Source: a virus. Taken from it: a DNA stretch of 64,000 bases. Numbering within the stretch: position 1 is the first letter of the stretch; every line of letters starts with the position of its first letter. Location of the stretch: positions 1 to 64,000 of IMG/VR virus record IMGVR_UViG_3300045391_006990; one strand, given 5' to 3'. This document shows positions 8,098 through 58,986 of the stretch, in pieces. The translations under genes were made by a program, and so were the position numbers. Under the pieces are notes generated by a model. The model did not search any database. It was not told where the DNA came from and was given only the letters and a program-made list of their open reading frames with translations.

Positions 8098-9012
8098 ATG
8101 GGCCTTGTCACCATCAGCGACCTGCTCACGCAACCGAAAGAAATGATCGCAAAGTACCGAACGTGGGCCTACGACGTCGGTGAGATGTACGACAACTTCA
8201 TCAAAACCGATGAGGAGAACGTTTCGTTTGAAGTGGGTTGGCATGGTGCCAAGGCTCGCTCCGCTGGCATTCACGCCTCGGAGCTATCAGGTGAGTGCAG
8301 ACGCCCCGTCTGGTACTCGTTGAAGGGCACGGAACGCAGCGACATCGATCTCGACCCGTTCTGGAAGAAGAAGTTCCGTGTCGGACACGTGTACCACGCC
8401 ATGGTGCAAGAAGACTGGCGTCGAATGTGCGAGAAGAGCGACGGCATGCTCACCTTCGAGAGTGAAGTACGCATTTCACCCGAGCTGAAGGGCATGGCCG
8501 AGCAGTACGGGATCCAGTCGAGTTGCGACGGGCGTATCAACTTCCACGACTTCCCTGGCGGGCCGCCGGTCATGCGGCTTGGCATCGAGATCAAGACCGA
8601 GTCGCCCGACCAATTCAAAGACCTGAAGGAGCCAAAGCTTCAGCATCGGCGACAGACGTGCGTCTACATGCGCTGCCTCGATGTTCCGTTGATGTACACC
8701 CAGTACATCAACAAGGGCACGCAGAACATCGTGCCCTCAAAGCCGCCGTGGGTGTTCAGCTTCGACTTCAATCTCTGGAACGAAATCGAGTCGGAAGCAA
8801 AGCAGGTCATCCACCTCGCTACCATCAACGAGCTTCCTCCACGCAAAGAGGGCATTTGGTGCGAGTTCTGCGGCTACAACCAGACGTGCCAGCCCGACGC
8901 ACTCGCTAAGAAGGCCAAGCGTGATGTTGGGCGCAAGCGGAGAGCAGAGCAACAGAAGCGCATCCGCACGGTTGGTGCGGGAGGTATTCGAGTACCGAAA
9001 GGAAATACATGA
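8098..9012 (+). CDS. Cas4-like / PD-(D/E)xK exonuclease
   Basis: 'IHASELSGECRR', 'GHVYH', 'CDG', 'IEIKT', 'Q..VYM', C-terminal 'CEFCGYNQTC' (four-Cys cluster). Confidence 0.8.
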   Translation: MGLVTISDLLTQPKEMIAKYRTWAYDVGEMYDNFIKTDEENVSFEVGWHGAKARSAGIHASELSGECRRPVWYSLKGTERSDIDLDPFWKKKFRVGHVYHAMVQEDWRRMCEKSDGMLTFESEVRISPELKGMAEQYGIQSSCDGRINFHDFPGGPPVMRLGIEIKTESPDQFKDLKEPKLQHRRQTCVYMRCLDVPLMYTQYINKGTQNIVPSKPPWVFSFDFNLWNEIESEAKQVIHLATINELPPRKEGIWCEFCGYNQTCQPDALAKKAKRDVGRKRRAEQQKRIRTVGAGGIRVPKGNT

Positions 9013-9650: not shown

Positions 9651-10108
9651 TCCAGCTGCACTTTCCCTGGCTGCCTCCTTCGGTGAACAACCTGTACCAG
9701 GACACGTTCTTCAAGGTCGGTAAAAAGCTCATGTCCAAGCGCTCGCTGACCGACGAGGGCAAACGCTTCAAGAAGGAGACGCTGGCGTACATCGTCCAGC
9801 GCTTTCAGCCGCAGCTGCTGTTCTTCAAGAAGAACGTGCCGTACGTCTTCTACTACCGGTTCAGCACCCCGGAACTGCTGAACTCCACCTGGCCAAAAAA
9901 GGCGGAGAACAGGTACAAGAAGTTTGACGCCAGTAACTTGGTCAAGGTTCTCGAGGATGTGATCGTCGACGCGAGCGGTATCGACGACTCCAACTACCTG
10001 ACCGTCGTCTCCGAAAAACGAAAGGGGCCGAAGGAGGAGACGCACATCTGGATCTGGAACACCGAAGAGGAGGGATGTCCCTTCCATGAAGCAGCCTTCT
10101 CCCTTTGA
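9647..10108 (+). CDS. rusA: RusA-family Holliday junction resolvase
   Basis: 'PPSVNNLY', 'KFDASNLVKVLEDVI...GIDDS'. Confidence 0.8.
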   Translation: MIQLHFPWLPPSVNNLYQDTFFKVGKKLMSKRSLTDEGKRFKKETLAYIVQRFQPQLLFFKKNVPYVFYYRFSTPELLNSTWPKKAENRYKKFDASNLVKVLEDVIVDASGIDDSNYLTVVSEKRKGPKEETHIWIWNTEEEGCPFHEAAFSL

Positions 10109-10475
10109 GGCTTACAACCACACAGAGCTCTATCAGACGTGTCTTAGCGCGGGCATCCTCGTGCGGCCGAACGAGCCGCGGGCGGAGATGATCGCGTACC
10201 TGGAGGGAGAGGTTGCGCCACCCTCCATAACCGACGCCGACCACATCTTCAATACGTGGAGGCACGGCATCATTGGCTTCATCGAAGAATACTGGAGGCG
10301 GCTGGAGACCCAGCTGCTCTGCCCGGCCCGGCTGATGAAGCACCCTACAACACCAAACCCAAAACCCTGCTTCGGGTGTCTTGACGCCCAAGTCGTCCAC
10401 TGTCTAGTAAGTAATTCCGAGAACGCCAACTTGATCGAGGCGCATCGTTTAGTGAGGAGACCGAGAACCAAATGA
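10086..10475 (+). CDS. Hypothetical protein with N-terminal HeH/LEM-like helices and a Cys cluster
   Basis: 'YNHTELYQTCLSAGI...RAEMIAYL'; CPAR/CFGC/HC. Confidence 0.55.
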   Translation: MKQPSPFEAYNHTELYQTCLSAGILVRPNEPRAEMIAYLEGEVAPPSITDADHIFNTWRHGIIGFIEEYWRRLETQLLCPARLMKHPTTPNPKPCFGCLDAQVVHCLVSNSENANLIEAHRLVRRPRTK

Positions 10476-11143
10476 CTGCTACCCAAATTTCCGTTTCAAC
10501 CGCCCCCCGTGAAATCGAAGGCCTGAAGAAGGCTGGCCGCTTCAATCTGCGCGTGCTTGCGCAGGAGCTTGGCCTGTTCGAGAACGAAGCGGCAAAGACC
10601 GCGTTCATGTCCGCTTCCAATGACCAACAGGCGGAGACCGTCTTGAAGTACCTGCTGGAGAAGGACGGCGGCCCGAAAACCAGCGGCAAGGGTGGCGGTG
10701 GAGCAGCCTCCGGCCGCGCGCCTTCGACCAAGAACGCGGGCAAGGGTGCGGCTACCAACGGCAAGGCGACGGGCGAGCCCGCGGCTGGCTCCGGTGGTGG
10801 CGGTACGCAAGCCACTGGTGGTGCGGCTGTCGGCGCCGGCGCCGAGAAGATCTTGCAGAAACTGCAGGAGCTCATCGAGAAGGTCGACGGCTTCCAGGGC
10901 GAGATCGAGAACCTGAACAACGCCGTAACGCAACTGCAGGGCATCAGCGCGGGCACCAACCGTTTCGTGGCGCTCTCCATCGGTCTGTCGGGCCAGCTCG
11001 CTCAGCAAGTGCTGGGCGCGGGGCTCGAGCAGATCCTCGACGTCACGCTCGAGGACATGCCTGCGGTCGAGGCCGCCATGAAGCGCATGGCGCCGGTAGA
11101 AGAGGCTGATGAGGCCGAAGACGAGGGAAACGAAGAAGAGTAG
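10472..11143 (+). CDS. Hypothetical protein: 'GRFNLR' helical domain, Gly/Ala linker, coiled coil, acidic tail; candidate -1 frameshift extends it to 11331
   Basis: Strong codon bias; GGAG RBS; G GGA AAC in frame at 11125-11131. Confidence 0.75.
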   Translation: MTATQISVSTAPREIEGLKKAGRFNLRVLAQELGLFENEAAKTAFMSASNDQQAETVLKYLLEKDGGPKTSGKGGGGAASGRAPSTKNAGKGAATNGKATGEPAAGSGGGGTQATGGAAVGAGAEKILQKLQELIEKVDGFQGEIENLNNAVTQLQGISAGTNRFVALSIGLSGQLAQQVLGAGLEQILDVTLEDMPAVEAAMKRMAPVEEADEAEDEGNEEE

Positions 11144-11331
11144 CCGTCAAGACGTGGCCGGGCTGTCGGCGATTGAAGACGCATGAAGTTGTTGAAGTCA
11201 GCGAGAGCTACATCACCTCGCTCCGCTACAACGACCTGCGTAAATTCGCCGTCAGCCTCGGCGTCCTAGTACAGGACGACCCAAGTCTTGATGTGCTGCG
11301 CCAACGCATTCGGCAGTGCCGTCTCGTGTGA
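11125..11331 (+). CDS. -1-frame extension ORF (68 codons) with an HeH/SAP-like helical motif
   Basis: GKRRRVAVKTWP...SYITSLRYNDLRKFAVSLGVLVQDDPSLDVLRQRIRQCRLV*; no ATG, only an internal TTG without an RBS. Confidence 0.55.
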   Translation, partial: GKRRRVAVKTWPGCRRLKTHEVVEVSESYITSLRYNDLRKFAVSLGVLVQDDPSLDVLRQRIRQCRLV

Positions 11332-11380: not shown

Positions 11381-11581
11381 ATGAGTGCGTCGTGCAACGG
11401 GGAAGTTCGTAGAGAAGGTCACCAGTGGTTCTGCTTGGACTGTGGGTTCGAGAGCTCGGCTTGGAGCACAGAACACGCACCACTACAGACCAGACGTGCG
11501 CATTTCCTCTCGTCTCTGCTCGAGCTAGTTCGAGAAGCGGAAGCAGACCAACGAAGTGTGGGAGCCGCAGTAGCGGCGTAG
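11381..11581 (+). CDS. Small zinc-ribbon-like protein
   Basis: 'SCNGEVRREGHQWFCLDCGFE'; AAGG RBS. Confidence 0.5.
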   Translation: MSASCNGEVRREGHQWFCLDCGFESSAWSTEHAPLQTRRAHFLSSLLELVREAEADQRSVGAAVAA

Positions 11582-11592
11582 ACCACGTGGAG

Positions 11593-11634
11593 TAGGTGTT
11601 ACTGGTACAGCCAGCAACGCCTATTCTTTAGCCC
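11593..11634 (+). terminator. Terminator at the convergence of the replication and structural regions
   Basis: TAGGTGTTACTGGT-aca-GCCAGCAACGCCTA, then TTCTT and TAGCCC. Confidence 0.7.
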
Positions 11635-14600
11635 TTCTTAGGCGGTCGACGCACGCCAATTTGACTACTAGGTCCTTGCCTTACCCCAATGCGTACGGAG
11701 GCAGGACCCCTCACACCGACAAGAACTGTCGCAGGCGTGAGCGTTTGCGTGTTTGGACGATAGATGGACAAAGTACCCGTACAGACAGCCTGGCCCATCA
11801 AATTGGCTAGCAGCGGGTGCATGATGTCAGGAGAACAGCTAGCTCCTGCCATCAAGTTTGCTGTGAGCGCACCTGCACCTTGAAGCAAACCGCCAAGGGA
11901 AGAGCTGCCTGTTAGTGAGGCCGCGATGCCGGGCGCGTTGCTTAGTGTGCCTGCGCAGCTTGCGCCTGCACTCAAGTTGGATGTTGCTTGAAGGAATAGC
12001 GCTCCTGTCGCAGACAAGGACGCAGACCCATTGGTGTTCATCCCAAGCTGAACAACACCTGTCACCGCAGCAACTAGCGCCGCCCCTCCGCTTAAGGCAC
12101 CCAAGATGATCCCACGGTCGAGCGTACCCGTCAGTGAAGCCCCTGCCACGCAGGCGGTTGCGATGACCGCATTCCCGATCAGGGTGGCAGTGCAATTGAC
12201 CGTACTGGAGATAGAACAGCTCAGGCTACCCACTCCAGTTGGTGTCGCGCTGAGAGCTGCACCGGCCGCCAACGAGGCACCTCCGCTACGGAGGGCCTGC
12301 CCGGTGCCTGTCAGGTTAGCGCTGGCCGACGGCGACGCAGACACTGCGGCGGTACCACCCAACGCGGATACCAGCACGCCTCCTGCGCTGCAGGCGGCGC
12401 CCAACCCACCACTACCGGTCAGTGCCCCTACGCAAAGAGCGCCGGCCGTAATGAAGGACACTGTCGATGACTGGTCTACTAGCGGCCCTGAAACCACAGC
12501 ACCAGCCACGCAAGAGGCGTTCAGTGATCCGAACGCTGCCACCGAGCCCGTGCTGGAGGCTCCTGCCGCCAACGTTGCGTTCAAGGCGCCCGTCCCCGTC
12601 AACCCAGCGCTGGAGGCGGCCCCGGCGGTAAGAGAGCCCACCAGAAGCTTACCCAAGGGAGCCGTCATCGATGCGGAAGCACTAGTGGAGCAAGCCAGCA
12701 GCTTGCCCAATGGAGCGTTCAGCGACGAGCTGGCGCTCAAAGAAGCAGCCAGCCCTGCGTTAGAAAGTAGCTGCGCAGAGACAGCCGCGCTGGCACTCAG
12801 CAACGCGCCCGCAGCGCCTTGCCCGGTCACAACACCGGAGCAGACAGCGCCGGCGGCGGTACTGCAGACCAAGAGGCTGCCTAGAGCACCCGTTGTCGTA
12901 GAGCCCACACCCAACGTAGCTGCCAGTGCTCCTGAGGCTACGAGCGTCCCTGCGCTCGAACCTCCCTCGAGCAGAGAGGCAGACAGCCCGCCAGTTCCCG
13001 TTACTACCGCAGAGGCGGTGGCGCCCTGTGCCAACGACGTCGCCAGGCTGCCAGCACCCACCAGGTTACCGGTGCAGGCAGCACCAGCCGATACCGATGT
13101 GGTCAGAAAGGAGCCACCCGCTAGGTTGCCGCCCAAGCTTGCACCGGCGGAAAGTGAGCTGGCAGCCGCCTGTACCCCGAGCAGCTGCCCGGAGCAGCTA
13201 GCCCCTGCGCTTACGCTACAGACCAACAGCTTACCCAGCGCAGCTGAAACGGCGCTTCCTGCCGAAATAGCTGCAGCTATTGGGTTGAGCGTGCGGAGAG
13301 AGGGAGACATAACGGCCCCCTCAGTAAGGCTGCTAGCGATCGATCCGGTACCAGTCAGCGCAGCCGTGCAACTTGCCCCTGCGGTTGTCGAGCAAACGAG
13401 TAGCTTGCCCAGAGCTGCAGTGACAGCCGCGCCCGTTGTCAGCGAGGCGGTACTGGCAGAGGTGCCCGTCAAGTTACCGGAGACCGTGCCCCCTTCCGTT
13501 AAAGAAGCAGTGAGCCCACTGGAAGGTGGAAACTGGTACGCCCAAAGACCCTCACCAGTGCTTGCGTTGTAGAGCCGGCGCGACACCGGGTCGTACACCA
13601 TCCAGAACGATCCATCAGTGAACGACTTGGTGCCGACGTTGCTCCAGCCGCTTGTCGACGTCGCGGGGATGGCTTGCCTGATACAGTTACCAGGCGAGTG
13701 CAGCGCCGTGTAGATGTACGAGCCGTCGGAAACGCAGCTCAGGTAGAAGAACGAAGCGCTGGGGCCGACGTTGGTCCACGTTGCTCCACCATCGGTCGAG
13801 CGCGCAACGCCGGCGGCGCCGGAGATGTAGATGTCGCCGTTCGACGTGTAGGCGATCTGCTGACCGCCGTGATCCATGTTGTCGGTAGAGACCTGCGTCC
13901 ACGACGTGCCGCCGTTGGTGGTGCGCCAGCGGCCCGCATCCTGCGAGCCATAGATCCACGTGTTGCTGTTGCCGATCCCGAAGCCCGGATGGCACAGAAA
14001 GTCGACGTCGACACCGGCGGAGCTCGTGATGCCCGGGACATTTTTGGCGGTCCAAGTGTCGCCACCATCGGTCGACTCCAGCACGCCGGGAGCTGTCTGC
14101 CCCGTCCATGGACTGTGGAATGAAACGAGTAGGTGGTCTGGATTGTTGGGGTCAGCCGCAACGTGGTAGGCGTCGCTCACGGGAGCAACGGAGAGGAAAT
14201 TACCAGACTGGGCCCACGTCGCTCCGCCATCAGTCGAACGCCAAAGACCGTTCGTAGAACCACGAACGCCGTCAGCAACGAAGATTCTACCGGGCCGAGT
14301 AGGGTCAGGAATGATGATCGCAATCGGCTGCCCTGGACCTCCGATCCCAGGTCCACTGATGCGGGTCCAGCTACCGCCCGCGTTCGTTGACTTCCAAACA
14401 CCGCAAGCCGTGTCTGTCGTAGTGTTGTGAATCCAGCACAGGTAGAGTGTGTTGGGAACTACAGGGTCTCGCACCATCGACTGCGTAAAAGCACCCGTCG
14501 ATGGAGGTGCATGCAACTGCGTCCACGTATTGAGGGGCAGGTCTGGCCGAGCTTGCAACGTCGCACCCGCTGTCAGCGACGCGGCGACGTTAACTCGCGA

Positions 14601-15350
14601 AGTGAGGTTGGCGCCCAGTGTCGCGCCAGCACTAAGGTTGGCAGTACGTTGACCCGTAAGAAACGACGCGCTTAAAGACGCACCACCAGCTAGGTTGGAG
14701 AAAATCGAACCCGGCTGCGGAGTAAAGACCACCATCGCGGCCGTGCCGGAATGCGCACCTTTGGCGGCAGTCGGAGCCACGCTGCCGGGCGAAAGCGAAG
14801 TGACTGAAAAAATCTGAGCTTCGCTCGCAGTGTCGCCGCTGTTCACCCAAGTGAACGTCGGCGGAGTGATGGAGATCGGCGTGCCCGATACATTCCAGAC
14901 GTCTAGGTCCCAAGCGTTGCCAACGAATGTCGCAGCCGCACCACCGCCCGGTGCGGTGACGGACCCCATCGCGAGTGAACCGGTAGTATTCGAATTTACG
15001 GAAAAACCAGCGATGGCGCTGGTGACACCGCTGCTTACGTCGCAACCGCGCGCGTAGTACGTGATCGGTTTGACATCGCCGCCCGCGCCCGTGTACGTCG
15101 GAGAGTACGTACTCGGCTCACCAGCAGCATTGGTGATGTGCTTTGCGAGAATCGTGATGAACTCACGATCGAGAGACGCATCACCGGGCGCGTCGCAAAT
15201 CTTCGTGAAGCCTGCGAGCGACGCGCTCGCGTCCTTGTCGTAGAACCCGCAAAGGCAAAGGATGAGAATGTCACCATTCGCCAAACCTGTCGGCTTAGCA
15301 GGAGCAGCGCCGTAGCCTCCCCAGGTGAATCCACCAAATGAAACGGACAA
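11628..15350 (-). CDS. Large fibre/adhesin-like virion protein with an Asp-box (BNR) beta-propeller and a long Ala/Gly/Ser repeat stalk
   Basis: Repeated 'STDGGxTW' Asp-boxes; ~18-aa 'ASLxAGAxxxGxL' repeats over about 600 aa. Confidence 0.7.
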   Translation of the reverse strand: MSVSFGGFTWGGYGAAPAKPTGLANGDILILCLCGFYDKDASASLAGFTKICDAPGDASLDREFITILAKHITNAAGEPSTYSPTYTGAGGDVKPITYYARGCDVSSGVTSAIAGFSVNSNTTGSLAMGSVTAPGGGAAATFVGNAWDLDVWNVSGTPISITPPTFTWVNSGDTASEAQIFSVTSLSPGSVAPTAAKGAHSGTAAMVVFTPQPGSIFSNLAGGASLSASFLTGQRTANLSAGATLGANLTSRVNVAASLTAGATLQARPDLPLNTWTQLHAPPSTGAFTQSMVRDPVVPNTLYLCWIHNTTTDTACGVWKSTNAGGSWTRISGPGIGGPGQPIAIIIPDPTRPGRIFVADGVRGSTNGLWRSTDGGATWAQSGNFLSVAPVSDAYHVAADPNNPDHLLVSFHSPWTGQTAPGVLESTDGGDTWTAKNVPGITSSAGVDVDFLCHPGFGIGNSNTWIYGSQDAGRWRTTNGGTSWTQVSTDNMDHGGQQIAYTSNGDIYISGAAGVARSTDGGATWTNVGPSASFFYLSCVSDGSYIYTALHSPGNCIRQAIPATSTSGWSNVGTKSFTDGSFWMVYDPVSRRLYNASTGEGLWAYQFPPSSGLTASLTEGGTVSGNLTGTSASTASLTTGAAVTAALGKLLVCSTTAGASCTAALTGTGSIASSLTEGAVMSPSLRTLNPIAAAISAGSAVSAALGKLLVCSVSAGASCSGQLLGVQAAASSLSAGASLGGNLAGGSFLTTSVSAGAACTGNLVGAGSLATSLAQGATASAVVTGTGGLSASLLEGGSSAGTLVASGALAATLGVGSTTTGALGSLLVCSTAAGAVCSGVVTGQGAAGALLSASAAVSAQLLSNAGLAASLSASSSLNAPLGKLLACSTSASASMTAPLGKLLVGSLTAGAASSAGLTGTGALNATLAAGASSTGSVAAFGSLNASCVAGAVVSGPLVDQSSTVSFITAGALCVGALTGSGGLGAACSAGGVLVSALGGTAAVSASPSASANLTGTGQALRSGGASLAAGAALSATPTGVGSLSCSISSTVNCTATLIGNAVIATACVAGASLTGTLDRGIILGALSGGAALVAAVTGVVQLGMNTNGSASLSATGALFLQATSNLSAGASCAGTLSNAPGIAASLTGSSSLGGLLQGAGALTANLMAGASCSPDIMHPLLANLMGQAVCTGTLSIYRPNTQTLTPATVLVGVRGPASVRIGVRQGPSSQIGVRRPPKKG

Positions 15351-53801: not shown

Positions 53802-54158
53802 ATGACCATCAAATCGATATCCGTTGAGCAAGCCAAGCCTTTGTCCAAATCGCAGCTAGAGTGCGTAGGGCGCTTCAACCTGAGATTGCTGGCTGATGAA
53901 CTCGGAATGCTTGCCAACAAGGAGGCCTCAAGATCGTTCCTCTGCTGTTCGAACGCTGAGCAGGTGGATTTGGTGTACGCAAAGATGCACGACTTGGACC
54001 TAACGTCTCCCTTCGACAGGAGCACGACTATCGACATCCGCATCAAATCCGCCAAAGACGCCCTTGCGTCTTCGCTCATCGCGCTACGACATGCCCACGT
54101 CCGTGAGCTAACTGAAGAGGTGCGGAGGCGGGTGGAGGAAGAACTATGCGGCGCCTGA
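53802..54158 (+). CDS. 'GRFNLR'-domain paralogue
   Basis: 'LECVGRFNLRLLADELGML..EASRSFL..SNAEQ' aligns with the N-terminus of 10472..11143. Confidence 0.7.
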   Translation: MTIKSISVEQAKPLSKSQLECVGRFNLRLLADELGMLANKEASRSFLCCSNAEQVDLVYAKMHDLDLTSPFDRSTTIDIRIKSAKDALASSLIALRHAHVRELTEEVRRRVEEELCGA

Positions 54159-54526: not shown

Positions 54527-55102
54527 ATGGGAGATCGACAAGTTGAAATGGCCAAGCTGATTAGTGAGGCTAGCCTGCTGAATCCAGAACAGCTTGCAGG
54601 ACTTGGAAGATACCAACTGCGCATCATTGCCGCCGAATTGAATTTGATGAGCACAGAGGAAGAACGCCTCCACTACATAAAGAAACCCGTGGGCGAGCAA
54701 GCCTTGTACCTGCACCAAATGCTCAGAGAGTTGCCAGGAGCAAAGTGGCCTGAGCTCCCGTTCGATGAGGAGTTCTTGCGCATCGTCCTTCTGGAGGCCC
54801 GCGTCATGGGAAAAGACGTTACCGTCGAGCCGTACAAGACTTGGAACAACGAGCTCGCGTGGAGGCGCACCGACAAATACATGGCCGGCGGTACCGAGGG
54901 GACGATGAACATAGAGCAGGTCTATGAGTTGCAGGCCACCATTGTTCGCATGAACCAAGCCTTCTCGAATCAGAAAGGCCTGATGGCCATGCACGTACGC
55001 AAGCACCTCTGCTCGCACAAGGACGCGGCGAGTAACACCAAAGCTATCGGAACTGGCCAAGGTGCGGACATCTGCCCTGCGTGCGGAGCGCAGCTCGGCT
55101 GA
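54527..55102 (+). CDS. 'GRFNLR'-domain paralogue with C-terminal zinc ribbon
   Basis: 'LAGLGRYQLRIIAAELNLM..EE...Y..KPVGEQ'; 'CSH...ICPACG'. Confidence 0.65.
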   Translation: MGDRQVEMAKLISEASLLNPEQLAGLGRYQLRIIAAELNLMSTEEERLHYIKKPVGEQALYLHQMLRELPGAKWPELPFDEEFLRIVLLEARVMGKDVTVEPYKTWNNELAWRRTDKYMAGGTEGTMNIEQVYELQATIVRMNQAFSNQKGLMAMHVRKHLCSHKDAASNTKAIGTGQGADICPACGAQLG

Positions 55103-55319: not shown

Positions 55320-55323
55320 TCTG

Positions 55324-55398
55324 CGCACCCCGCTGGATTCGAACCAGCGACCTCCGAGATCTTCAGTCCCGATGCTCTGCCAACTGAGCTAGGGGTGC
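55324..55398 (-). tRNA. tRNA-Phe(GAA), atypical (6-bp anticodon stem, G discriminator, no encoded CCA)
   Basis: GCACCCC TA GCTC AGTTGGCA GAGC A TCGGGA CTGAAGA TCTCGG AGGTC GCTGG TTCGAAT CCAGC GGGGTGC G. Confidence 0.85.
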
Positions 55399-57615: not shown

Positions 57616-57920
57616 CGGAGAAGGAAATGGAAGAGACGTTCGACCTAGGAAAAGCAACGGAGCAGACTCGTGAACTCACTGCGCTACTGTCACTCATGAA
57701 GCGTCAGCGCAAAAAGAGCAAACCCATCGAGACGGTGCTGGAAGCCCTAAACAAACTGGGGTCCCGCCGCCCAACGAAGCAACGTTTCAGCGTTCACTTC
57801 GACCGCGACCGCAGCAAGTTCATCGTGTACACAGCACACGAGGAGACCGTGCTGCCACTCGTACTGCACCACACTGCAGAAGAGATCTACTGCAAGCCCA
57901 CCAAGGAGAAGCTCAAGTGA
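57603..57920 (+). CDS. Hypothetical protein
   Basis: Operonic overlap. Confidence 0.5.
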   Translation: MGQLTEKEMEETFDLGKATEQTRELTALLSLMKRQRKKSKPIETVLEALNKLGSRRPTKQRFSVHFDRDRSKFIVYTAHEETVLPLVLHHTAEEIYCKPTKEKLK

Positions 57921-58501
57921 AGTACTTTGCCAGCAAAGAAAGCAGCGTGCTGCTAGTAGCACTTATAGTTGGCTGCAGCGCGGCCGAGCCGCCCACATCC
58001 ACGTCTACGCGCCCGACGCCGACCGAAGCTCACGTAGCAGACGTTGAAGTACAGGAAACACCAGAACCGCCGACGGTAGATCGCCTGCATGTGGAGTGGA
58101 CGGTCGACGAGCAATTCACGTCAGACGAATTAGACGCCATACTGGTTGCCGGTGAGGACTGGGCTACAGTCACTGAAGGACGTGTCGGTCTGACCTTCAA
58201 GGTAGCGGCTGTTGAAGTCGGTACACCATGGACCATTGCCAGGACCGATATACCGAACGCCAATGGCCGGACCAGCATCTTCGATACCGGCACGTTCATC
58301 GAGATCGATGCCAACAACTTCGAGAACACCACGTGCGTAGGACAAGTCTGGTACGTAGCTGCGCATGAGCTCGGACACTCGCTCGGTATCCTGACGCACG
58401 GACCAACCGGTGTAATGAAGACAGGTGCAGGTGCTGCTAATTGTGCCGTGACGTTCACTCATAGCGACATAGACTTGTTCAACGCAGCCAACCCAAACTG
58501 A
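57917..58501 (+). CDS. Lipoprotein with a matrixin (metzincin) metallopeptidase domain
   Basis: Lipobox 'LIVGC'; 'VAAHELGHSLGILTH...GVM' (HExxHxxGxxxH + Met-turn). Confidence 0.8.
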   Translation: MKYFASKESSVLLVALIVGCSAAEPPTSTSTRPTPTEAHVADVEVQETPEPPTVDRLHVEWTVDEQFTSDELDAILVAGEDWATVTEGRVGLTFKVAAVEVGTPWTIARTDIPNANGRTSIFDTGTFIEIDANNFENTTCVGQVWYVAAHELGHSLGILTHGPTGVMKTGAGAANCAVTFTHSDIDLFNAANPN

Positions 58502-58509
58502 AGAGCTAC

Positions 58510-58986
58510 ATGACCATACGCTATGTAAAAGGCGATGTGACCAAGCCCGAGGATACGGGTGGCATTCGTGTCATCGCCCACTCTTGCAATGACGTGGGCG
58601 GTTGGGGTCCAGAAGGGGGCAGCGTTGCCGATGCTATCGGCAAGCGTTGGCCAGAGGCGAGGAGCGAGTACAAGTCGCAATTCCTAGAAGGCACTGGCTT
58701 GAAGCTCGGCGAGGTGCAGCTAGTCGACGTCGGCGACAAGCTGTGGGTCGCCAACTGCATCGCCCAGCGTGGCTACCGCCGCCCCGGCAATCTGCAGCCG
58801 TTCAAGTACGAGGCCTTCGAAACCTGCATGGGGTTTCTGGTGAAGAGCTTCGTCGGCCGCAACGCCAGCATTCACATGCCGCGCGTGGGCACCAAACTTG
58901 GCGGCGCTGATTGGCACGCCATCGAATACATCATTGAAAGAACGCTCGGCGAAGCCGAGCTTAACGTCACGGTGTACGACCTATGA
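58510..58986 (+). CDS. Macrodomain protein (ADP-ribose processing)
   Basis: 'IRYVKGDVT', 'IAHSCNDVGGWG', 'VANCIAQ', 'IHMPRVGTKLGGADW'. Confidence 0.9.
   Translation: MTIRYVKGDVTKPEDTGGIRVIAHSCNDVGGWGPEGGSVADAIGKRWPEARSEYKSQFLEGTGLKLGEVQLVDVGDKLWVANCIAQRGYRRPGNLQPFKYEAFETCMGFLVKSFVGRNASIHMPRVGTKLGGADWHAIEYIIERTLGEAELNVTVYDL

Follow-up and report, generated by a model that had tools for sequence, protein, structure and literature searches.

Does the last gene of a phage replication operon specify one protein or two? The gene, at positions 10472..11143, lies in IMG/VR virus record IMGVR_UViG_3300045391_006990, a 111-kb record with a CheckV completeness estimate of 58%, of which we analyzed the first 64 kb (64,000 nucleotides [nt], hereafter the window). 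A preliminary description of this stretch had proposed that a −1 ribosomal frameshift near the 3' end of this non-tail gene yields two isoforms, a short one with an acidic end and a long one with an added helix-extended loop-helix (HeH)/SAP-like domain. Comparison of the locus with its relatives supported this proposal. Judging from the aligned loci, the gene very probably harbors a real, conserved programmed −1 ribosomal frameshift at the heptamer G_GGA_AAC, by which two proteins would be made from one message.

Conservation of the shift site and coding capacity of the −1 frame

The argument turns on the following elements.

10472..11143, plus strand: zero-frame gene encoding a 223-amino-acid (aa) protein, with stop codon TAG at 11141-11143; documented by the open reading frame (ORF), 21 homologues, and an AlphaFold2 (AF2) model
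11107..11112, plus strand: TGA TGA, the stop codons that close the −1 frame four codons 5' of the heptamer
11125..11131, plus strand: slippery heptamer G_GGA_AAC in the X_XXY_YYZ register, with GGA (11126-28) and AAC (11129-31) as zero-frame codons; proposed site of the −1 shift
11132..11331, plus strand: −1-frame extension, 66 codons after the shift and then TGA (11329-31)
11173..11175, plus strand: TTG, the sole canonical start that the −1 ORF offers 5' of the conserved domain, read as an internal Leu codon and devoid of a Shine-Dalgarno (SD) sequence

The zero-frame gene ends with GAG GGA AAC GAA GAA GAG TAG, the heptamer being located five codons before the stop. The −1 frame opens at 11113, contains no ATG, and comprises 68 codons from GGG (11125) to TGA (11329-11331). 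The sequence features given in the preliminary description, among them the register of the heptamer, the closure of the −1 frame, and the presence of an upstream GAGG, all hold. G_GGA_AAC is a recognized shift-prone heptamer, and a haloarchaeal virus has been proposed to use it for a g-t shift (PMC5009743). In a single sequence, the combination of a heptamer and an open −1 frame is not above chance: the window has 187 ORFs with a length of 100 aa or more, and in these, seven in-frame heptamers were located within 15 codons of the stop, six of them with a −1 frame open for at least 68 codons. Because the pattern is so common by chance in one sequence, the case rests on conservation across relatives. 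A second heptamer of the window, CCCAAAC at 58492-58498 (plus strand), is in frame in gene 57917..58501, two codons before the stop, and has a 164-codon −1 frame; it is a chance heptamer, and hence a negative control, because that frame is the next gene, which starts with an ATG of its own at 58510.

A word-indexed search with the 223-aa protein retrieved 21 homologues of 215 to 230 aa each. None of them was an in-frame fused form (proteins of 122 to 391 aa were searched). With the −1 peptide as the query, an exhaustive search by HMMER likewise retrieved only small ORF calls. Single-protein scans of GenBank phages, IMG/VR, and GTDB genomes revealed no relatives; alignment-based scans recovered one IMG/VR locus and four more metagenome loci, and scans with the −1 peptide provided no further loci beyond that set. 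The comparison at the DNA level comprised six loci, namely, the window and relatives L003, L004, L005, L007, and L008. L003 sits on the same contig as L006 and L009, and L005 is a short contig ending 25 codons into the −1 frame, so that five loci are full length. Identity among the upstream proteins was 52 to 64%, at which the five relatives, all on independent contigs, are not redundant copies of one assembly. Since the contigs carrying relatives are 195 to 203 kb long, they point to a family of ~200-kb phages: the source of the window is a large soil phage, and its relatives are an uncultured family of soil phages of that size.

Alignment of the six loci revealed that GGGAAAC was identical and in frame in 6/6 loci, 12 to 15 nt 5' of the zero-frame TAG, and that the 45 nt 5' of the heptamer varied freely. 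GGA is a rare Gly codon, accounting for 16 of the 180 Gly codons in the genes of the six loci. Eight Gly columns were invariant across these genes, and the same codon was present in all six only at the heptamer (GGA), the other seven columns varying in codon. Over the whole upstream gene, 28% of the invariant amino acid columns held to one codon. In an alignment of 22 proteins, the acidic tail was variable, yet one Gly was invariant and the next Asn was at least 90% conserved (a single protein lacking it), two to three residues from the C terminus, as expected from a constraint acting on GGA AAC at the nucleotide level.

Downstream of the heptamer, the −1 frame was the sole frame of the six without internal stops in all loci, and its length from GGG to TGA was exactly 68 codons in 5/5 full-length loci. 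The −1 peptides displayed 71 to 85% identity across loci versus 52 to 64% for the upstream protein, and differing codon pairs were synonymous in 54 to 59% of cases in the −1 frame versus 7 to 35% in the other two frames. The two codons after GGG AAA always specified Arg-Arg (CGA or CGG, then AGA or CGA), and the codon changes at these positions altered the zero-frame residue (Glu, Asp, or Gly). Additional synonymous changes, farther along the −1 frame, included CCG/CCA, GGC/GGT, TGT/TGC, CGG/AGA/CGA, CGA/CGG/CGT, and TTG/CTA/CTC. On the 5' side, a −1-frame stop was found 0 to 11 codons before the heptamer in 5/6 loci. In L005, a −1-frame TGA directly adjoins the GGG of the heptamer, indicating that entry into the −1 frame is confined to the 12 nt up to the zero-frame TAG (the heptamer plus two codons).

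The preliminary description had set a heptamer conserved among homologues against an independent start for the downstream ORF; it was the heptamer that was kept, and no conserved start or ribosome binding site was found. No ATG, GTG, or TTG occurred in the −1 frame before codon 16 to 29 and none at a conserved position: the first of these codons was at position 21 to 24 in four loci (GTG in most relatives) and at position 29, inside the conserved domain, in L008. The codons aligned with TTG 11173 of the window were CTA, CTC, CTC, GTC, and ATC in the relatives. All candidate starts in the −1 frame lacked an SD sequence and were located 3' of the conserved motif V-A-V-x-T-W-P-G-C-R-R. Together, these comparisons indicate that the shift site is conserved, that the −1 frame is protein coding from the heptamer on, and that this frame has no start of its own.

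Predicted isoforms and candidate stimulatory elements

The slippage mechanism that we infer would operate as follows. Most ribosomes would terminate at TAG 11141 and release the 223-aa protein with its acidic tail. A fraction of the ribosomes would slip at 11125-11131, tRNA-Gly moving from GGA to GGG and tRNA-Asn from AAC to AAA, and would then read CGA AGA AGA GUA... in the −1 frame as far as the TGA at 11329. The predicted product would be 286 aa long (residues 1 to 220 plus 66 residues), the last three Glu residues being swapped for the basic segment R-R-R-V-A-V-K-T-W-P-G-C-R-R followed by a C-terminal HeH domain of the Rho-N/SAP type. The ratio of the isoforms would be low and fixed. A single tRNA gene, tRNA-Phe (GAA), was detected in the window, at 55323-55398 (minus strand); tRNA-Asn, tRNA-Gly, and tRNA-Lys, which might influence slippage on the heptamer, were not found there.

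The part of the extension that would distinguish the long isoform is the following.

11203..11316, plus strand: predicted HeH domain (Rho-N/SAP/LEM-like), the most conserved part of the locus; suggested by AF2 modeling and structural search

The AF2 model of the 223-aa protein had a mean predicted local distance difference test (pLDDT) score of 59.5, with scores of 70 to 81 for its domains. It comprised a small four-helix N-terminal module (residues ~15 to 65, pLDDT 76 to 81), a disordered Gly/Ala/Lys linker (residues 67 to 121), and a long helix (residues 121 to 181) followed by short helices and by the disordered acidic tail. The prediction of a long central helix agrees with the coiled-coil character that had been ascribed to this protein. 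Weak matches of low root mean square deviation (rmsd), including the Rho N-terminal domain and the SAP domain of DEK, were obtained for the N-terminal module. The extension was modeled as a flexible basic segment followed, with pLDDT scores of 82 to 86, by helices at residues 27 to 32 and 35 to 45, an extended loop, and a helix at residues 55 to 64. Searched with VIA-align against representative structures, the extension had its top match in Rho (1a62_A), whose N-terminal domain (residues 1 to 46) superposed with a Z of 5.1 and an rmsd of 1.7 over 44 residues. Many SAP and LEM domains came next at Z 3 to 4, among them those from emerin, LAP2, Ku70, PIAS1, FAN1, and SLX4; low Z-scores are expected for a domain of ~40 residues. 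The sequence of the extension contains the pattern L-R-x-x-A-x-x-L-G-V. It had no match in Pfam and no sequence-profile match in the PDB, Pfam and PHROGs provided no informative family for either frame, Foldseek searches with both models returned nothing significant, and the ESM Atlas provided no usable lead. The HeH/SAP-like assignment of the preliminary description finds support in the predicted fold and its best match, which suggest an HeH fold for the extension, but not in sequence profiles. A profile comparison between the N-terminal module and the extension reached a probability of only 8.5%, at which paralogy is not demonstrable.

Going by the models, the long isoform may bind nucleic acids. 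Within the phage's replication/recombination module, the added domain would make this isoform a protein with two HeH-type modules. A bolder proposal, to which we assign only a small chance of being right, is that the frameshift sets a fixed ratio between forms of a coiled-coil protein bearing one and two HeH modules, that the minor long form acts as a bivalent nucleic acid bridge or tether, and that the 20 invariant nucleotides after the shift site are a dedicated stimulator, possibly read by a trans-acting factor rather than acting as a stable RNA fold.

Two elements flanking the heptamer are candidate stimulators of the shift.

11111..11114, plus strand: SD-like GAGG, candidate stimulator 10 nt 5' of the heptamer
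11140..11166, plus strand: candidate bulged hairpin with an outer stem (GUAGCC/GGCUGU), an inner stem (GUCA/UGGC), and a 2-nt bulge, starting 8 nt after the heptamer and including the zero-frame TAG

The hairpin, and perhaps the GAGG, would stimulate the shift. A GAGG was present 7 to 13 nt 5' of the heptamer in 6/6 loci, which is weak evidence, as such a motif is likely anyway in an acidic tail rich in GAG and GAA codons. The arms of the outer stem, GTAGCC (11140-45) and GGCTGT (11161-66), can pair in all six loci, and this pairing, one of two considered in the preliminary description, was therefore retained; the alternative pairing GCCGG/TCGGC was specific to the window and not kept in the relatives. 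The bulged hairpin comprises 10 pairs, with 98% of the cells paired over the six loci and predicted free energies of −5.4 to −10.2 kcal/mol. Its 5' half corresponds to nt 11139-11148 and 11151-11159, none of which varied among the six loci, even at wobble positions in the −1 frame. Set against the 28% of columns that held to a single codon upstream, this invariance indicates an extra constraint on these bases.

An 8-bp stem, UAGCCGUC/GACGGCUA, was also considered as a conserved element; it is perfect in L003 and near perfect in L004 and L005, whereas the window, L007, and L008 have interruptions in it, and the bulged hairpin was preferred. At 3661-3697 of L003, the invariant 5' arm UAGCCGUC can pair instead with GACGGCUA located 20 nt downstream, with −14.7 to −15.3 kcal/mol in L003, L004, and L005. 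L003 has tandem TAG stops, GAGGAG upstream of the heptamer, and the 8-bp stem 9 nt downstream. Lineages may differ in the strength of the stimulator. Both stimulators, the hairpin and the GAGG, appear plausible from their positions but are unproven, and a low level of shifting that needs nothing but the heptamer, of the kind seen in lambda G/GT, would be compatible as well (PMC5009743).

Alternative explanations and counterevidence

The −1 ORF could be read as a separate small gene with its own initiation at TTG 11173, or at GTG in the relatives, the heptamer being kept only because Gly-Asn is needed at the C terminus of the upstream protein. Gene callers have predicted free-standing ORFs of 45 to 63 aa for the peptide family, and start codons are available at TTG 11173 in the window and as GTG at codon 21 to 24 in most relatives. 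However, these candidates are at nonconserved positions and lack an SD sequence, and L008 has none before codon 29. The segment located 5' of all of them is conserved as protein with synonymous DNA changes, and a constraint on amino acids would not fix the rare codon GGA and the preceding G in 6/6 loci while other Gly codons drift. An independent gene is therefore very improbable. One match to the −1 peptide, P0024 (1,254 aa), was rejected since it looks like an unrelated repetitive protein. An antisense gene (all other frames have internal stops), transcriptional slippage (the longest homopolymer run is 3 nt), and an alternative genetic code (translation with table 11 leaves the long replication genes intact) were likewise rejected.

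Termination-reinitiation would have ribosomes restart after TAG 11141, nearby in the −1 frame and on a noncanonical codon, the extension being a separate, coupled peptide. Genes coupled by ATGA exist elsewhere in the operon (at 9009, 9647, and 10472), and the stop codon falls inside the invariant block. Against this, no ATG, GTG, TTG, CTG, or ATH is present in the −1 frame from the upstream stops to codon 16 in any locus, selection on the −1 frame (Arg-Arg through CGA/CGG/AGA) acts already 5' of the zero-frame stop, and the invariant heptamer with its rare codon would be left unexplained; this mechanism has a slimmer chance still. It is barely credible that a chance heptamer lies beside a spurious open frame or that the gene has decayed through a fixed frameshift mutation. 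Combinations of a heptamer and an open frame are indeed common in this window when a single sequence is considered, as illustrated by the trivial CCCAAAC at 58492, but six independent assemblies retain the arrangement discussed here, both frames are under purifying selection, and the −1 ORF has exactly the same length throughout.

Several observations weigh against programmed frameshifting as we propose it. The comparison at the DNA level rests on only five relatives out of 21 protein homologues. One of these homologues, P0004, has Gly-Asn at the very C terminus rather than two to three codons before the stop, and in the gene call of P0025, a distant homologue of the −1 peptide, a separate start precedes a W-P-G-C motif. 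No covariation or compensatory change was found in any pair of the hairpin across the six loci. The 69 nt that follow the heptamer did not fold more stably than shuffled sequences (z −0.2 to +1.2), and RNAalifold and single-sequence folds were inconsistent. The stimulators belonging to the dnaX-type geometry put forward in the preliminary description are plausible candidates: the GAGG is present in 6/6 loci and the hairpin is conserved, but covariation and excess stability are lacking and the GAGG is expected in a Glu-rich tail. In E. coli, heptamers ending in A_AAG are much shiftier than those ending in A_AAC (PMC5009743). The efficiency of the shift proposed here, on A_AAC, may therefore be low.

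Known recoding systems and genomic context

The proposed frameshift resembles that of lambda G/GT (G_GGA_AAG) and its relatives in long-tailed phages in that a −1 shift would occur on G_GGA_AAN a few codons before the stop, would generate a C-terminally extended minor isoform, and is conserved despite divergence. Lambda G/GT shifts at a low level, the ratio between its products being about 30:1 (PMC5009743). Unlike lambda G/GT, the gene considered here belongs to a replication operon and is not located between the major tail and tape measure genes; its A-site codon is AAC instead of AAG, and the added part is a 66-aa extension predicted to be of the HeH type. Neither frame matched a chaperone family of Pfam or PHROGs, although a missing match is not proof.

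The E. coli dnaX gene is likewise associated with replication, and its heptamer is flanked by an SD-like motif ~10 nt to the 5' side and by a hairpin on the 3' side. In dnaX (tau/gamma), shifting on A_AAA_AAG occurs with an efficiency of about 50% and leads to near-immediate termination and a shorter product. Here, the shift would instead lengthen the protein from 223 to 286 aa, a net gain of 63 residues, and the Pfam search of the frameshift gene revealed no DnaX or clamp-loader match.

In the capsid genes of T7 (10A/10B), T3, Lactobacillus phage A2, and Listeria phages A118 and A500, some of the protein molecules acquire an extra C-terminal domain through a −1 shift near the 3' end (PMC5009743). 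The addition of a C-terminal domain to a minor isoform by a shift near the 3' end is the trait that the lambda G/GT and T7/T3 capsid frameshifts share with the case proposed here. The capsid products are virion proteins and the part appended to them is often Ig-like, whereas the gene analyzed here is nonstructural and its predicted added domain is of the Rho-N/SAP type. The gene belongs to neither the lambda G/GT nor the T7/T3 capsid gene family. Most of the annotated phage frameshifts outside tail chaperones are in capsid proteins. In the SEA-PHAGES set used for PRFect, 2,397 of the 2,476 annotated phage frameshifts are in tail chaperones (PMC10885494). Neither this protein family nor frameshifting in a gene of this kind was described in the literature searched. 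The mechanism of shifting is already known, and what would be new is a comparatively supported case in a nonstructural gene of a replication/recombination operon, suggesting that phages employ frameshifting to control isoform ratios in their DNA metabolism. Gene callers split the locus into the 223-aa protein and an orphan ORF of 45 to 63 aa, or nothing, so that its most conserved domain is misannotated or missed. For recoding research, the locus offers a short, clean test cassette in which the heptamer and 20 nucleotides downstream of it are invariant.

The frameshift gene is the last of a plus-strand operon in which it follows, in order, genes for a DnaB-like helicase, a DnaG-like primase, a family A DNA polymerase (PolA), an HU-like protein, a RecA-like protein, a Cas4-like nuclease, a coiled-coil protein, a RusA-like resolvase, and a 129-aa protein, in keeping with the replication-operon context originally assigned to it. 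Coupling of genes within the operon involves ATGA overlaps at 9009, 9647, and 10472. The −1 ORF is followed by a small zinc ribbon ORF (11381-11581) and then by a convergent gene for a 1,240-aa protein. This context, from the helicase to RusA on one side and with the zinc ribbon ORF and the convergent gene on the other, indicates that the gene does not occupy a tail chaperone position.

The 129-aa protein encoded by gene 10086-10475 (plus strand), which is coupled to the frameshift gene by ATGA, displays an HeH-like pattern (L-Y-Q-T-C-L-S-A-G-I-L-V) near its N terminus, and several HeH-type modules are clustered within the replication operon. Outside the operon, genes 53802-54158 and 54527-55102 (both plus strand) start with a module resembling the N terminus of the frameshift gene product, with the motif G-R-F/Y-x-L-R-x-x-A-x-E-L; for gene 53802-54158, identity to that N terminus is 44% over residues 1 to 59. 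The presence of this module in further genes points to a small family of phage proteins with a common HeH-like N terminus and differing C-terminal parts. The zinc ribbon-like ORF (11381-11581, plus strand; 3900-4098 in L003) has four Cys residues (C-x-x-C ... C-x-x-C), its own AAAGG SD sequence and ATG, and is syntenic in L003 and L007. The convergent gene (11628-15350, minus strand) has a Sortilin/Vps10-type (BNR-like beta-propeller) match and long repeats rich in Ala, Ser, Gly, and Thr, and its 1,240-aa product is probably a fiber or another surface protein.

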